A stretch of 18,334 nt of DNA, from positions 1-18,334 of the IMG/VR virus record IMGVR_UViG_2651869725_000022; one strand, written 5' to 3'. Made by a program: the position numbers and the translations under genes. Source of the DNA: a virus. Its lineage: Duplodnaviria > Heunggongvirae > Uroviricota > Caudoviricetes. This document shows positions 1 through 5,849 of this stretch, one piece after another; the stretch's first letter is position 1, and the number at the start of each line of letters is the position of its first letter. A model generated the notes under the pieces. It worked only from the letters and a program-made list of their open reading frames with translations, did not search any database and had not been told where the DNA came from.

Positions 1-183
1 GGCCCGTTCAGCCAGGTCCTTGTCGAAGCGGTAACGAAACGACTTACTTTTTTCCGCCATCAGGTCATCAAGATGGCGCTGGCAGGCCTGAATCACAAAC
101 TGGCAGGCCACAATCTTTCCGCGCACGACATCACGGGCATACTGATTGGCAGCATTTACGTTGGGGTAAGATTTCCGGCTCAT
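1..183 (-). CDS. Terminase large subunit, N-terminal fragment (gene continues beyond window start)
   Basis: Minus-strand frame open from 207 to the window edge; ATG at 181-183 overlaps the stop of the upstream small-subunit gene (ATGA coupling). Translation begins [49 protein letters not shown], which I recall as typical of HK97-family TerL N-termini. Position directly downstream of TerS supports the call. Confidence 0.55.
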
Positions 184-1242: not shown

Positions 1243-1563
1243 CTAAATCAGATCACCAATGTATTTTGCACTAATTGAAATTTGCATCTGAGGCATTCCG
1301 ACCACAGATCCATTTAACAGGTAATCACGTCCTCGTTCCTGCAAAGAAAGACTCAATTCAAAGTTCTTTACCCCAGGGAAAACCGAGGTGGCATTTAAAT
1401 CATGCTGCGATACGCGCAGAATAAGTTGGCTACCGTCAACTTTTCCCTGATACGTAAAACCAAAATCTCCGCCGTTTACTGCATTGTTTTTGACAACTAC
1501 GGTACCATTACCAAAATCACGCTGATTGCTTCTGAAAACAACAAAATAGATACCATCTTTCAT
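1243..1563 (-). CDS. Hypothetical protein (106 aa) between spanins and HNH
   Basis: Intact ORF followed by a terminator; no family recognised by eye. Weak RBS. Confidence 0.4.
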   Translation of the reverse strand: MKDGIYFVVFRSNQRDFGNGTVVVKNNAVNGGDFGFTYQGKVDGSQLILRVSQHDLNATSVFPGVKNFELSLSLQERGRDYLLNGSVVGMPQMQISISAKYIGDLI

Positions 1564-1655: not shown

Positions 1656-1925
1656 TCATTTTTTTTGCATGATGTGACCACGCTCAACTTCAATCCTTCT
1701 GATGTCAGCTTTATCGGTATTACATTGCGCCAATGCAGACAACAAGGCGACATTCAGATCTAAGCTCGAGCCCCACGTAAAATGATTAGGTAAATCAGGC
1801 TGAGGGGTTTCAGCCGTCAGGCTGGCTGGTAACGGAACTACCGGAACCTGGACGTAAACTGTTCGCGTACTTCCGCAACCGGTCAGCAGCGGCAGCAGGC
1901 ACAGGACGTGAAGCACAATCATCAT
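1656..1925 (-). CDS. Outer-membrane spanin (Rz1-like lipoprotein), overlapping Rz in another frame
   Basis: Frame 1656-1991 overlaps the 3' part of the Rz-like gene. Contains a lipobox (LLPLLTGC) followed by a Pro-rich stretch (VPVVPLPASLTAETPQPDLP). Start placed at the internal Met-Met (1925); the exact start is uncertain. Confidence 0.55.
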   Translation of the reverse strand: MMIVLHVLCLLPLLTGCGSTRTVYVQVPVVPLPASLTAETPQPDLPNHFTWGSSLDLNVALLSALAQCNTDKADIRRIEVERGHIMQKK

Positions 1926-2202
1926 CCGCAACAGCCACTTTGATATCTTTCTGGGTTCTCTGTGACTCCAGTGCGATCTGCTGTTTTGCATGTTGATTCG
2001 CCTCCTGAATGATGTTCGTTATTGCCATAGTACGCAGAACATTCGCGGTGATAGCCTCAGTAGAATCAGCTCGCTGTTCCGCAGCATCAGCACGCTTCTG
2101 CTCCTCCAGAAACTTTCCATGATAGTGATTCGCTGACCAGACAAGACCACCAGCGACACAAGCAATAAACGTTAAAATGAGCGCCCAATAACTCATCTTC
2201 AT
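1810..2202 (-). CDS. Inner-membrane spanin (Rz-like)
   Basis: 130 aa with an N-terminal transmembrane helix (WALILTFIACVAGGLVW), then a charged, coiled-coil-like region. Immediately downstream of the endolysin, with the lipoprotein frame overlapping. Confidence 0.6.
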   Translation of the reverse strand: MKMSYWALILTFIACVAGGLVWSANHYHGKFLEEQKRADAAEQRADSTEAITANVLRTMAITNIIQEANQHAKQQIALESQRTQKDIKVAVADDDCASRPVPAAAADRLRKYANSLRPGSGSSVTSQPDG

Positions 2203-2813
2203 ACCAGCAGCGCCGCCCGCGCCTTGTTGTATCGGACCTTACGATCCTCAATACCGTTCAAACCGCCGTTAATGATGCGCGTAACACGGTTAATATCGGC
2301 ACCGTAGATCATGCAACCTTTAGAGGTGTAGAACCATGCAGCTGAGCGCGCAGCCTGTAGTTCCTGTTCCAGTTGTTCAGGTGAAGTCACCAGATCTAAC
2401 TTCAGCGCCGCGCCACAGATGCGATAATTATGGAGGCCAGTGATTTGAATTAATCCTCTACCGCGATATTTCCAGCCATCACCGGGTGCTTTGTTACCCA
2501 GCCGGTTGCTATACACCAGATTGGCAATAGCATCCTGGCGAGCTGCATGTCCGGATGTTCTGCCAAGGGCATCAGCCTGCTGCTGTGTGATCCTCTTTCC
2601 GAACGTCGCCACCAGCGCAGATGGCGTGTAGTTAAAATTTTCAACTACGGCGCTAAACCCCATCGACTCATGGCCTACCTGAGCGATAAACATTGCCTGA
2701 TCCGCTGGTGCTGTAATGCCGAATTCCTTCATCGCCGCATCAATGTGCGGAAACCAGCGCGCAGCCAGCCCGGCGCTAATACCAGCCGCCTTTTGAAATA
2801 ATTGTTGGTTCAT
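2199..2813 (-). CDS. Endolysin, glycoside hydrolase family 19 (chitinase-like lysozyme)
   Basis: 204 aa; motifs FIAQVGHES and YRGRGLIQITGLHNY are characteristic of GH19 phage endolysins. Flanked by holin-like and spanin genes; 4-bp overlap with the Rz-like start. Confidence 0.8.
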   Translation of the reverse strand: MNQQLFQKAAGISAGLAARWFPHIDAAMKEFGITAPADQAMFIAQVGHESMGFSAVVENFNYTPSALVATFGKRITQQQADALGRTSGHAARQDAIANLVYSNRLGNKAPGDGWKYRGRGLIQITGLHNYRICGAALKLDLVTSPEQLEQELQAARSAAWFYTSKGCMIYGADINRVTRIINGGLNGIEDRKVRYNKARAALLV

Positions 2814-3094
2814 TAGTGCCTCAGATGATCAACCAGACGTGCAACGTTGCCTCTGACAGCCACCAGCACGGAAAGAAAAATAGTGTTCGCCACGATAATG
2901 GGCCATGAGGAATGGGGATAAATCCCACAGAGATAGGCCAACGGAACAGCACTGTATGTAACAGTAATCAGCCAGGCTAAACGTGAAACCCAAGGACGAT
3001 GCCGCGAATCACCACGACGATAAAACATCAGAGTAATAACAACACAAGCACATAACAGCGCATTTATAGTTGCTGTCGGGTCATTTAGCTCCAC
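2813..3094 (-). CDS. Small membrane protein of the lysis cassette (holin/antiholin-like)
   Basis: 93 aa with at least two hydrophobic helices (INALLCACVVITLMF; IIVANTIFLSVLVAV). Lies between the putative holin and the endolysin, with start/stop overlaps on both sides. Confidence 0.45.
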   Translation of the reverse strand: MELNDPTATINALLCACVVITLMFYRRGDSRHRPWVSRLAWLITVTYSAVPLAYLCGIYPHSSWPIIVANTIFLSVLVAVRGNVARLVDHLRH

Positions 3095-3467
3095 CTGAAC
3101 CTCCCCGGCGCGTTATGAGCGCCACCAGCGAGCCGATATCCTGATTATTCAGGAACGTCAGGATTTTAACGGCTAAAGCAGAGACGATTACGGCACCAAT
3201 AGCATCCAGAGGTTTATCACTGTATCCGGTCAAGTTCGCCAGCTTGGAGCCAACCAACCCAGAGCAAAGAATCCCGGCAATATATGACACGATAAAATAT
3301 GCCAGTCGGCGCGATGCACTCAGATCTGCAGCTGTTGCTATGTAGAATACAGCCCCTGCAAATGCGCCAAATACAACGCCGTAATCAGTTCCGGTCAGCA
3401 GTCCATAAACACTGGCACCCGTCAGGGCACCACCAGCCAGCCCAGTACCGGAAATCGGATCGGACAT
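3081..3467 (-). CDS. Putative holin (Gly-rich multi-pass membrane protein)
   Basis: 128 aa, Gly/Ala-rich hydrophobic segments. First gene of the lysis cassette, with a GAGGGGG RBS 5 nt upstream of the ATG at 3467. Confidence 0.5.
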   Translation of the reverse strand: MSDPISGTGLAGGALTGASVYGLLTGTDYGVVFGAFAGAVFYIATAADLSASRRLAYFIVSYIAGILCSGLVGSKLANLTGYSDKPLDAIGAVIVSALAVKILTFLNNQDIGSLVALITRRGGSGGAK

Positions 3468-3510
3468 TTAGCCCCCTCTTAATTGCTGTTGGTCCTCTCA
3501 GAACGAGGGG

Positions 3511-3540
3511 AAACAAAAAAGGCCGCATTAAGGCGGCCTT
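3511..3540 (-). terminator. Intrinsic terminator downstream of the accessory gene 3558-4154
   Basis: 8-bp GC stem AAGGCCGC / GCGGCCTT (3519-3540) with a 6-nt loop; on the minus strand it is followed by TTTTTTGTTT. Confidence 0.65.
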
Positions 3541-3557
3541 GGTGAGGTATAGTTTTT

Positions 3558-4154
3558 TTAAGATAAACTTTGATTGATATACTCATGACACCCAAAAATA
3601 AAGGCGTTTTGTGCATCAATAAATGACTTTTTTTCTTCCGGAGTAAAATACCCTTTTGTAAAACATACTTTTAGCGCTTTTTGAAGATCTGCCGTCAGGG
3701 TTATCAACTTACAACCTTCCTCATCAGGCCTTATTAATAGAAGTAATTTATTTTTACTTATTTCAGCGGCCTTTATTGGAACTTGAATCTCCTCAGGGAA
3801 AACACCCTTAGCCAATATATCCATATTCTTATTTCCGACCAGATGCCATTGCTCAAATGTGCTGGCCAACATAATTACGTCTGTCACATGCTCAGCGCCA
3901 GCAAAACGTATTTGTTGCGCCAATTCTTTATTAGTATTCAAGTGAGCCTGTAATGTGGCTAAGGCAAAATTTTCTTTGATTGCCCTGTATGCAACCCAAC
4001 CAGTTATTCCTGCGGCAATAACGCCTGCAAGAGCAGTAATGAGTGTTTCAAAAGGAAAGGAAGAACTGATTTCAATTGGCGGTAATTTTTCTATTACCAA
4101 GGTCAACTCGCCAGTAGTTTTTTCGAAAGCGTACGGTACGTTTTGCCAAGTCAT
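3558..4154 (-). CDS. Hypothetical membrane-anchored protein (198 aa); accessory gene between Q and the lysis cassette
   Basis: Strong RBS (AGGAGG 4 nt before the ATG at 4154). One predicted transmembrane helix (LITALAGVIAAGITGWVAYRAI) near the N-terminus, then a soluble domain of about 140 aa. Visibly more AT-rich than its neighbours and flanked by intrinsic terminators. No family recognised. Confidence 0.6.
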   Translation of the reverse strand: MTWQNVPYAFEKTTGELTLVIEKLPPIEISSSFPFETLITALAGVIAAGITGWVAYRAIKENFALATLQAHLNTNKELAQQIRFAGAEHVTDVIMLASTFEQWHLVGNKNMDILAKGVFPEEIQVPIKAAEISKNKLLLLIRPDEEGCKLITLTADLQKALKVCFTKGYFTPEEKKSFIDAQNAFIFGCHEYINQSLS

Positions 4155-4182
4155 GAAGCCTCCTGAGTTTCAGAGGAATCAT

Positions 4183-4208
4183 AACAAAAAAACCCGCTCA
4201 ATGGCGGG
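4183..4208 (-). terminator. Intrinsic terminator just downstream of Q (tR'-like position)
   Basis: Plus strand AAAAAAA-CCCGC-tcaatg-GCGGG; on the minus strand the stem is followed by seven Ts. Lies between the Q stop (4261) and the next start (4154), as tR' does in lambda. Confidence 0.5.
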
Positions 4209-4260
4209 CTCTTAATGTTGTGTTGCTCAGTTCGCTTTAACGTCCCGAGCCTACCACAAT

Positions 4261-4839
4261 TTAAGCACTTTCTTGCTCACTCTGCAACTTAAATCTGTCG
4301 CTATTTGTGCCGAATGCGTCACAAACTGGAGCGTACAGGATCGATTCTGCAAGACTTAGCCAAGTGTCAATGCGTCGACGACAGGTGATCAGCGGCCAGT
4401 CAGGATGTTTAGCCTGCAGTTCATTGGCCATCTGCAACTTGCTCTTACGAAGACGATACCGGTCAACAATCACGCTATAGAGCGATCGGTAGTCATCATT
4501 CATCAGTACTGAAGCAATGACACCGTCCACTAACAACCCTTCTTCATCTGAACAGAACGCCAGGCCGCTTTTATTTTTGCTGTTGAGAATTTCACGCAGG
4601 TACGCTTCAAGTTCAGGCTTGGTGATACCCGCTATCTTCATCCGGCGTAGCGCTTCATTGATAGCTGTCTTGGTGATTTTCCCGGATGCCAGAAGCTGGT
4701 TAAACATGTTTCCACCACTACCACCGCCGATATAAGACCAGCGGCCCCACATGCGCAACTTGCCTTGTATCCAGATACTTTCCAGAGTACGAAGGCGAAC
4801 CATTTCACCTGATTTGCCAACTTCAGAAGGATTAATCAT
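4261..4839 (-). CDS. Late-gene antitermination protein Q-like
   Basis: 192 aa. Position (end of nin region, directly upstream of terminator and lysis genes) plus recalled resemblance to Q-family antiterminators (LRMWGRWSY...GGGSGG region, Cys/His pairs near the C-terminus). Family assignment is from memory. Confidence 0.55.
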   Translation of the reverse strand: MINPSEVGKSGEMVRLRTLESIWIQGKLRMWGRWSYIGGGSGGNMFNQLLASGKITKTAINEALRRMKIAGITKPELEAYLREILNSKNKSGLAFCSDEEGLLVDGVIASVLMNDDYRSLYSVIVDRYRLRKSKLQMANELQAKHPDWPLITCRRRIDTWLSLAESILYAPVCDAFGTNSDRFKLQSEQESA

Positions 4840-4853
4840 TTAGCATTCTCCAC

Positions 4854-5849
4854 TTACGCCAGTACGCCTATTGCCAGCGCACGATCGATAAAACGAAATA
4901 TCAGCTCCAGCTGGGAGCCATACTTCTCTTCAAATGCCACGGTATCCGCATGCAGCTCGTCGTGATGCTTTCTGCACAAAGGCAACACAAAGAGGTAATG
5001 CGCTTTTGTACCCATTCCACCCTGACCGTGACCTATCAGGTGGTGGGGATCATCAGCAGGCTTTCCACAACATGCACACGGCTGTGTCTTAACCCAGCGC
5101 GTGTACTTTTCATTAACCCAGCGGCGACGTTTTGGGCGTAACATAAAAGACTCCGGCGACTCCGGATCCACTTTCAGCGCCAGCACCTTTTTTGCCTTAT
5201 CCTGGATGATGCTGGTGGCAGGAACCGAAGGCACAAGGTCACTTTCCCGGGTGACAGACGGCACAACAGGCTTCGGTAATCTCAGTGCCTTACGGGCTGC
5301 ACTTTCCGGTAAGGCACCCGCCAGGTCATTACGAATCAGCCACCAGCACAGTTCCGGCATTGTCACAGCGTGACTATCATCAAAACCGAGATCCCGACGC
5401 ACAACAGACAACACCCAGCGGGCACAGTTATCCGTTGCCATTGATTCCAGCCGTTCCGTGAACTGATCGCGCAGCTGGTTATCGCAGTGCCAGCACAGAC
5501 GGATTGCACCCGGCGCGTGTCGCATTGTGGTCATGTTCTCGCTGTGCCAGTCGGAATGAGGCCACTGGCAGCCTTTTTCACGAAGTAACCAGCTTTCAAG
5601 ACATTCCACGCCACCAGCACGACGGATCACTGCCTCATTGCGGAACACGGCCCGAACGGCAGGATCATCCGCCAGCGGTTGTGATGCCGCCGGAACAGCA
5701 CCACTGGCGAAAGATGAATAACGTTCCGGCTCAGGCTCCAGCAGGACACGCCCCTGCATAAACAGGGGCATCAGCTCTGAACCTGGTCTGAACAATACGA
5801 TCCCCATACGCGGGGCAATTTCAGGGGTCAGTAGTGCTCTCACGGTCAC
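4854..5849 (-). CDS. DUF968-family (YdfU-like) protein with C-terminal HNH-like Cys/His motif
   Basis: 331 aa; C-terminal CACCGKPADDPHHLIGHGQGGMGTKAHYLFVLPLCRKHHDELH resembles a zinc-binding HNH-type nuclease motif. I recall this architecture from YdfU-like prophage proteins in the nin region. Confidence 0.55.
   Translation of the reverse strand: MTVRALLTPEIAPRMGIVLFRPGSELMPLFMQGRVLLEPEPERYSSFASGAVPAASQPLADDPAVRAVFRNEAVIRRAGGVECLESWLLREKGCQWPHSDWHSENMTTMRHAPGAIRLCWHCDNQLRDQFTERLESMATDNCARWVLSVVRRDLGFDDSHAVTMPELCWWLIRNDLAGALPESAARKALRLPKPVVPSVTRESDLVPSVPATSIIQDKAKKVLALKVDPESPESFMLRPKRRRWVNEKYTRWVKTQPCACCGKPADDPHHLIGHGQGGMGTKAHYLFVLPLCRKHHDELHADTVAFEEKYGSQLELIFRFIDRALAIGVLA

Follow-up and report, generated by a model that had tools for sequence, protein, structure and literature searches.

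The DNA analysed here, called the window throughout, is the 18,334-nucleotide (nt) stretch of the IMG/VR virus record IMGVR_UViG_2651869725_000022, from a virus of the Caudoviricetes. On its minus strand, between a Q-like late antiterminator gene and the lysis genes, lies an open reading frame (ORF) of 198 amino acids (aa), which is the subject of this work and which we refer to as the cargo gene. The original prediction for this locus described an AT-rich ORF of this length between Q and the holin, with a terminator on either side and a product that spans the membrane once, and this anatomy was found to be right. The features of the cassette and its immediate surroundings, in the direction of transcription, are:

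4261-4839 (-): Q-like late antiterminator gene, 192 aa, directly upstream of the cargo gene; Pfam DUF1133 (PF06576) and phrog_753
4259-4287 (-): candidate late promoter, PR'-like, overlapping the Q stop codon; TTGCAG at 4287-4282, a 17-nt spacer, TGcTTAAAT at 4267-4259
4186-4213 (-): upstream intrinsic terminator, tR'-like; GC hairpin at 4213-4188 with a 7-T run at 4192-4186
4178-4186 (-): extended -10-like element TGTTATGAT, immediately downstream of the T run; identical to TGnTATAAT at 8 of 9 positions
4150-4185 (-): predicted hairpin covering the Shine-Dalgarno (SD) sequence and AUG; the 5' arm, at 4185-4172, shares bases with the -10-like element
3558-4154 (-): cargo gene, 198 aa, phrog_18859, between the Q-like gene and the first holin
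3511-3540 (-): downstream intrinsic terminator, part of the cargo cassette; stem at 3540-3519 of 8 base pairs, 6 of them GC, with a T run
3081-3467 (-): first holin of the lysis cassette, outside the cargo cassette and given for context; Pfam Phage_holin_8 at 1e-34, phrog_198

The Q-like gene matches DUF1133 at 3.4e-92 and scores 34.8 bits against Phage_antitermQ (cut-off 26) in Pfam; in PHROGs it matches phrog_753, 'anti-termination protein Q-like', at 2.5e-68.

The cargo ORF starts with ATG, with AGGAGG located 5 nt upstream. Its GC content is 38.4% (32.7% at third codon positions), compared to 47.8% for Q, 52.2% for the holin, 48.3% for the window and 47.8-55% for the neighbouring genes overall. 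Such a base composition, unlike that of the flanking phage genes, is one of the marks of a moron. Across 11 clusters at 70-99% identity the gene is free of insertions and deletions except for one frameshifted variant, and the ratio of non-synonymous to synonymous substitution rates (dN/dS) is 0.07-0.15, so the gene is under purifying selection. The frameshifted variant, of 224 aa, is found in some E. coli (for example NZ_CP049845.1, UPEC-245U) and its reading frame continues through the region of the downstream terminator; in some lineages the gene is decaying. This known variant and the AT-rich sequence are what might be expected of a chance ORF or a decaying pseudogene within an AT-rich spacer, whereas the low dN/dS, the strong SD, the confident AlphaFold model, and full-length homologues down to approximately 17-35% identity with conserved length and architecture are not. 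The conservation data effectively refute such an origin already, and we give it almost no credence.

The protein matches phrog_18859 over its full length (1-198 of 198, E-value 7e-91), and the same family was matched by all 33 family members tested, with the homologue in phage LLS at 2e-20. The PHROG carries no annotation, and nothing on position, fold or regulation is attached to it. For the window protein no match was found in Pfam, NCBIfam or PADLOC, and phrog_18859 is its only PHROG. Likewise the 33 family members gave no match in Pfam, and a PADLOC search with 48 members gave only scattered matches at E > 4e-4, with none for the window protein. A search with the RefSeq accession of the protein gave no literature match.

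The family is rare. In an index of 5.8 billion proteins, only the 11 clusters at 70-99% identity were found, from Escherichia and Enterobacter, the cluster at >90% identity also taking in Shigella, Salmonella and Citrobacter proteins. A profile search run exhaustively against 1.84 billion representatives returned a family of 36 proteins, all of them full-length (approximately 190-232 aa) and with no extra domain, and a locus search of the GTDB representative genomes gave one locus only. The ORF is present in 32 of 5,426 complete E. coli genomes, where the Q allele of the window is found in 64. These E. coli copies are nearly always 100% identical, in isolates from hosts ranging from dog to wallaby, and this near-identity across varied hosts points to recent spread on phage. 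A tblastn search of 50,697 phage records with the window protein found nothing; it was only with distant family members as queries that a homologue was found in phage LLS (PQ299149.1, HER 843), a cultured phage with E. coli K-12 as a host (PMC12315714). Its coordinates are as follows:

L066 3498-4103: family member in phage LLS, mis-annotated as two ORFs, LLS_49 and LLS_50; the true start is the ATG at 3498 (MWQGIPF...)

In this phage a Dam methylase gene is located between the family member and the pinholin.

Comparison with close relatives shows that the contents of the Q-to-holin slot are exchanged. In E. coli FAM21845 and TST3 the Q region is as in the window (93% and 79% DNA identity, respectively) and the holin pair is the same, but the slot contains an unrelated 249-aa ORF in FAM21845 and an IS5-disrupted ORF in TST3. 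Homology to the window stops at 4187/4186, this being the end of the upstream terminator, and returns at 3522/3532. Phage SKA5 is 99.3% identical to the window up to 3512 and again from 4846, with a different Q and an 85-aa ORF between these points; its holins are 99% identical to those of the window, and it does not have the cargo gene. The alternative cargos each bring their own terminator. The 249-aa ORF of FAM21845 was considered as a hidden family member and rejected (hhalign probability 1%). In TST3 (L003 2543-3523) the element inserted into the cargo of this slot is ISKpn26, which is IS5-like.

The gene is thus present or absent between close relatives at a module boundary, with breaks at 3512-3523 and at 4186/4187 or 4846, a further mark of a moron. 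Judged from the sequence, the ORF is an exchangeable cargo cassette (a moron) spanning approximately 3523-4186, and not a lysis component, because relatives with the same Q and the same holins carry unrelated genes, with swap points at both terminators. The original prediction had expected variable cargo in this interval, as borne out by the other genes found in FAM21845, TST3 and SKA5; it had added that universal presence as a conserved lysis component would count against this, and the gene is absent from SKA5 and FAM21845, which share the lysis cassette.

The gene keeps a strict position in the lambdoid prophages of Enterobacterales that carry it. Approximately 60 loci were inspected, and wherever the locus is intact a Q-type antiterminator immediately precedes the gene. 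The Q families concerned are PF06576/phrog_753 in the window, in Providencia and at locus L031; PF03589 in Enterobacter; and PF06323 in Citrobacter, at loci L026, L028 and L062, and in phage LLS. Even proteins 70-76% identical to the window protein sit behind Q genes of all three Pfam families, on which ground the idea of a partner specific to one Q was rejected. Downstream, the neighbours of family members include at least four types of holin (holin_8 with holin_3_7, holin_2_1, holin_3_1, and an unassigned 100-aa holin) and three types of endolysin (GH19, Phage_lysozyme and CHAP), in the combinations holin_8 + holin_3_7 + GH19, holin_2_1 + lysozyme, holin_3_1 + CHAP or GH19, and the unassigned holin. 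In L017, L028, L031 and LLS, other genes (methylases, a secreted-type nuclease, and unknowns) lie between the family member and the holin. Given these varied Q, holin and endolysin partners, the gene is not bound to any one Q or lysis system. The expectation of variable cargo therefore needs qualifying: slot contents do vary among relatives, but this is not random cargo, being always first after Q and separable from the holin.

The position suggests a different explanation, which is the main rival to the one developed below: that Q-modified polymerase alone transcribes the gene, as an accessory of the late phase with a membrane role in lytic growth such as holin triggering, lysis timing or late superinfection exclusion. 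It is the first ORF after Q in some 60 loci, across PF06576, PF03589 and PF06323, and the operon ends in lysis. On the other hand, its partners comprise at least four holin and three endolysin types, sometimes with other cargo in between, and close relatives that share both the Q and the lysis cassette do not have it. Nor is there similarity to holin, antiholin or spanin families: the search for membership of these gave no match in Pfam or NCBIfam, only phrog_18859. Across the inspected loci we found neither co-inheritance with one holin or endolysin type nor consistent adjacency to the holin. An antiholin or lysis-regulator reading was set aside, the holin partners being too diverse, and lysis-timing control, one of the functions originally suggested, is unlikely given the number of holin and endolysin types found as neighbours. 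Overall we regard a late-phase accessory gene as unlikely, though still to be reckoned with.

The two bracketing terminators described by the original prediction were both found by a terminator pattern scan, and are the best terminator-like sites of the region. The scan as a whole was only mildly enriched (6 sites, compared to 3.2 +/- 2.1 expected), and therefore the case for the terminators rests on these two sites, their position and their conservation in relatives. Both are more stable in silico than shuffled sequences: the upstream region, 4170-4260, folds at -32.3 kcal/mol with a z-score of -3.5, and the downstream terminator has a z-score of -3.4. The downstream hairpin is intact in 98% of pair cells across 6 loci, with U-A, C-G and G-U replacements, for which covariation is not significant. 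A search of Rfam gave only sub-threshold 'leader' matches, reflecting both terminators. The upstream terminator is the last element in common with relatives carrying other cargo, while the downstream one belongs to the cassette, which thus has its own predicted transcription terminator, as morons do. A terminator of its own right before the holin would be needless for a gene of the late phase.

We infer that the sequence at 4259-4287 may be the late promoter PR'. It lies approximately 50-75 nt ahead of the upstream terminator, as expected for a short terminated leader. Along with the Q module, FAM21845 and TST3 share the sequence from 4265 down through the terminator, a stretch that includes the -10 element of the candidate. 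Locus L017 from Providencia, with the same Q family, has a TTGACT/TATAGT promoter at the equivalent place. A strict promoter scan did not call the candidate in the window. A -10-like TAGGCT follows it, in the region that would be transcribed initially.

The gene is preceded by a conserved 5' module, in the order GC hairpin, T run, G(C/T)TATGAT, approximately 15 nt, strong SD, and ATG. The element TGTTATGAT is the single match to TGNTATRAT in the whole window, and would imply a start near 4171-4170, approximately 7 nt past the TATGAT. Among 13 distinct promoter-region contexts, 6 have TG(C/T)TATGAT (the window, L005, L009, L024, L026 and L031), as do further clade variants and phage LLS, even where protein identity is down to approximately 20-35%. 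Two loci, L021 and L060, have the weaker TGCTTTGAT, and TGnTATGAT is not found in L013, L017, L020, L028 or L030.

The same bases take part in a predicted hairpin. In the window its minimum free energy is -15.8 kcal/mol (z-score -3.8), and none of 200 shuffles was equally stable. Equivalent hairpins have -15.4 kcal/mol in L031 (z -3.75), -14.5 in L009 (z -2.8), and -14.6 in phage LLS (z -4.0), the last of these having the upstream terminator, an intact -10-like element and the hairpin, in a different pairing register. An RNA begun at 4171, and so without the 5' arm, folds at only -1 kcal/mol. In an alignment of 10 sequences, pairing is kept in 88.5% of cells, and covariation is seen at two pairs, columns 7-44 and 17-34 (both U-A/C-G); the first of these joins the base that follows TG with the initial base of codon 2, with U-A in three sequences, C-G in seven, and no mispairs. 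The covariation score is 0.221 compared to 0.156 +/- 0.017 for shuffles, and was reached by 0 of 500, although the tool warns that among related sequences kinship alone can beat every shuffle without there being structure. G4185 and T4178 are invariant, yet in the hairpin model T4178 has no pairing partner and, in 3 of the 10 sequences, G4185 is mispaired.

The extended -10 reading and the SD-hairpin reading of these bases both fit the alignments and are compatible. Together they suggest that the conserved 5' module may provide Q-independent expression that is shielded from read-through. Independent expression in the lysogen, raised originally as a possibility, gains support from the conserved TGnTATGAT as a candidate element. 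The accompanying expectation of Q-dependent expression on induction becomes doubtful as far as protein is concerned, since read-through RNA is predicted to hide the SD and AUG in a hairpin of approximately -15 kcal/mol. The ribosome site predicted to be hidden in this way also argues against a gene that acts in the late phase, while the members in which a separate promoter would not fit argue for one.

The hairpin could instead be a conditional translational switch (an RNA thermometer, or one opened by a factor in trans) on a gene transcribed from PR', in which case TGnTATGAT would be only a pairing partner. As in thermometers, the SD and AUG are both covered; the anti-SD of the Enterobacter clade is U-rich with G-U pairs; and at pair 7-44 the covariation with the initial base of codon 2 is perfect. 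None of this would account for the invariance of G4185 and T4178 where they are unpaired or mispaired, or for an intact TGTTATGAT in phage LLS in spite of its different pairing register, and a hairpin of approximately -15 kcal/mol is stable for a thermometer. We consider such a switch distinctly unlikely.

The protein can be divided into three parts:

residues 1-36: acidic N-terminal tail
residues 37-56, nt 3987-4046 (-): single membrane helix, the only hydrophobic segment
approximately residues 58-197: C-terminal four-helix bundle, from the AlphaFold model

The AlphaFold result depends on the depth of the alignment: with 11 sequences the predicted local distance difference test (pLDDT) score was 41, which is unusable, and with 48 sequences it was 81. 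In the latter model residues 1-28 are unstructured, a single helix spans residues 35-107 and includes the membrane segment, and helices 121-140, 145-167 and 172-197 pack against this long helix to make a four-helix bundle. The soluble domain described earlier as unrecognised is so in Pfam, NCBIfam and PADLOC, and structure prediction has now given it this fold. Foldseek searches of BFVD and the PDB gave nothing at E < 0.001, and a sequence-profile search of the PDB gave only coiled-coil noise. Over the 48 members the N-terminal tail is net acidic, and lysine plus arginine number on average 2.85 in the 15 residues after the membrane helix compared to 0.88 before it, with the after side higher in 45 of the 48. 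By the positive-inside rule this charge bias places the tail in the periplasm and the bundle in the cytoplasm, and the protein is thus predicted to be a bitopic inner-membrane protein of this orientation. Conservation is highest in the N-terminal 100 residues (W3, P7, P25, F33, A55, N62, Q69 and R83), and the C-terminal part diverges. A Cys-His pair at residues 189-190 (window 3585-3590, within FxFxCHxY) is conserved in the closer subfamilies, to approximately 27-35% identity, and C189-H190 is a possible metal or dimer site.

The bundle resembles that of four-helix-bundle (4HB) sensors (TorS 3i9w, McpN 6gcv, NarQ 5iji and Tar 1lih), in that the model has an up-down four-helix bundle continuous with a membrane helix. 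This might suggest a lysogenic-conversion factor that alters host physiology, its membrane-anchored bundle binding or titrating a component of host membrane signalling or transport. The membrane helix does run straight into helix 1 of the bundle, as in chemoreceptor and histidine-kinase sensors, and the moron anatomy and the retention of the gene in prophage remnants (see below) would fit. However, generic helical bundles score nearly as well as the 4HB sensor structures, and there is no sequence match to 4HB families. The protein also differs from these sensors in having one membrane helix only and no output domain, and its charge bias would place the bundle in the cytoplasm, not the periplasm. 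A conversion factor of this kind thus seems very unlikely.

The remnants provide a further view of what is retained. In Enterobacter hormaechei (L005-L008, 5878-6920, four identical assemblies) approximately 1 kb of phage DNA lies between host genes, a peptidase M3 gene on one side and SRAP/DinI genes on the other. It comprises a PR'-like region without Q, the terminator, an intact cargo gene with its own terminator, and a broken holin, in which deletions of 1 nt and 11 nt scramble the first membrane segment. Between the remnant cargo gene and the prophage copy, dN/dS is 0.15. A second remnant, L020, has neither Q nor lysis genes. Retention in remnants is modest evidence that the gene may confer a benefit outside the lytic cycle, and its survival intact beside a decayed holin is not what a late-phase accessory function would lead one to expect.

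The picture that we tentatively favour, and which falls only slightly short of being probable, is that of a cargo cassette insulated for low, Q-independent expression, whose product acts in the lysogen at the inner membrane. The upstream terminator would stop transcription from PR'. Transcription from TGTTATGAT, which follows the T run immediately, would begin near 4171; the resulting mRNA would be without the 5' arm of the hairpin, leaving the ribosome site free, while any RNA reading through from upstream would carry the full hairpin, with the SD and AUG hidden, and would be translationally silent. The cassette terminator would keep transcription of the cassette out of the lethal lysis genes. 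In the prophage, the weak promoter of the cassette would then supply the protein at a low level. A role at the level of the lysogen is favoured because of the single-gene cassette, the bitopic protein, the insulation from late expression, the sporadic distribution, the remnants, and the indifference to Q, holin and virion modules. The protein is probably not a step in lysis. Within such a role, the most plausible function is to exclude other phages or to set off an abortive response against them, to the benefit of the lysogen, although this is clearly less than probable.

Several points weigh against this picture. L017 (Providencia) and L028 have no TATGAT, and the T run of their terminator is 13-17 nt from the ATG; with no room for a promoter, these members would be transcribed only by read-through, so that the insulation logic does not extend to the whole family. 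No -35 element accompanies TGnTATGAT, and pairing with the region of the start codon accounts for part of its conservation. The covariation comes from 10 related sequences. The strict position after Q in some 60 loci equally fits a gene that needs Q-driven expression. The argument from remnants comprises essentially one decayed lineage, in four identical copies, and one metagenome-assembled genome. Finally, PADLOC, Pfam, NCBIfam, the PDB and BFVD gave either no match or only non-specific ones, and none to a known family of defence or exclusion proteins.

As a kind of element, morons in the Q-to-lysis slot are well known, and the family itself is uncharacterised; what is new here is the strict first-after-Q position, the fold and the conserved 5' module. 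Morons with their own promoter and terminator have been described in the late region, and stx occupies the same Q-to-lysis slot in Stx phages (PMC8065619). The cargo gene is like the morons of Stx and other lambdoid phages in its atypical base composition, its own terminator, its presence or absence among near-identical phages, and possibly its own promoter. It differs from stx, which encodes a toxin expressed under Q, in that the product is a predicted bitopic membrane protein and the hairpin appears to block translation of read-through RNA; it differs from lambdoid morons in that phrog_18859 keeps its exact position across three Pfam Q families. In phi80 the late operon under Q control carries the counter-defence gene atiEcA, which a non-contiguous operon links to the defence gene taiEcA (PMC11364771).

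The predicted regulation is closest to that of certain insertion sequences (IS). IS10 and IS50 are protected against impinging transcription. IS200 is protected too, by a terminator at its end and an SD-sequestering stem-loop (PMC4513863). Both parts of such insulation, an upstream terminator and a stem-loop sequestering the ribosome-binding site, are found in silico at the cargo gene. The IS200 gene is a transposase, whereas here it is prophage cargo, with a candidate promoter inside the hairpin and no antisense RNA evident. As far as our searches show, IS-like 'fold-back' insulation has not been described for phage morons in the literature.

HK97 gp15 and T4 Imm are phage inner-membrane proteins of superinfection exclusion. 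SieA of P22 is a prophage-encoded inner-membrane protein with the same function (PMC10883804). Like proteins of the SieA type, the cargo protein is small and predicted to be in the inner membrane; those proteins are expressed from the prophage as single genes, at least one with its own promoter, and are dispensable for phage growth. SieA differs in having three predicted membrane helices and another genome location, compared to the one helix and 140-aa helical bundle here, and there is no sequence similarity. A more specific proposal, which we regard as rather doubtful, is that phrog_18859 could be a new family of single-gene inner-membrane anti-phage proteins (acting by exclusion or abortive infection), with a promoter buried in a hairpin so that late transcription would yield no protein; the N-terminal tail and membrane helix would be the effector or contact part, and the diverging bundle would confer specificity.

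The remaining annotated features around the cassette are:

4854-5849 (-): DUF968/HNH gene
2813-3094 (-): second holin
1656-2202 (-): spanin pair, overlapped type; ORF 1656-1991 overlaps the Rz-like gene at 1810-2202
1243-1563 (-): GrlR-like ORF, 106 aa, 40% GC; Pfam GrlR at 27.5 bits (cut-off 26.8), phrog_2483

Downstream of both holins there are, all on the minus strand, the GH19 endolysin, Rz/Rz1, the GrlR-like ORF, an HNH gene and the small terminase gene. The spanin ORF 1656-1991 has a lipobox, LLTGC, 3' of an internal Met. The GrlR-like ORF is placed between the spanin genes and the HNH and small-terminase genes, phage SKA5 has a GrlR-like ORF too, and the one at 1243-1563 looks like a second AT-rich cargo gene. 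A tRNA search of the window found none. E. coli D10 has the Q-to-lysis block in common with the window, while its packaging genes differ. It is worth adding that a prophage of Enterobacter ludwigii with a family member (L021 923-2833) has a PycTM and cyclase pair, Pycsar-like, in its early region.

The Q-to-lysis interval is the site of Shiga toxin and other conversion genes, and its other cargo therefore bears on prophage-borne traits, here in E. coli, Salmonella, Citrobacter and Enterobacter. The regulatory design of this rare family is compact, consisting of a terminator, a -10-like element, a hairpin predicted to hide the ribosome-binding site, and a second terminator. The presence of a family member in LLS, a cultured phage of K-12, makes its function open to direct experiment. 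If the proposed picture is true, it shows a way for a prophage to express a membrane-protein gene in the lysogen and yet have it silent during the phage's own late burst.

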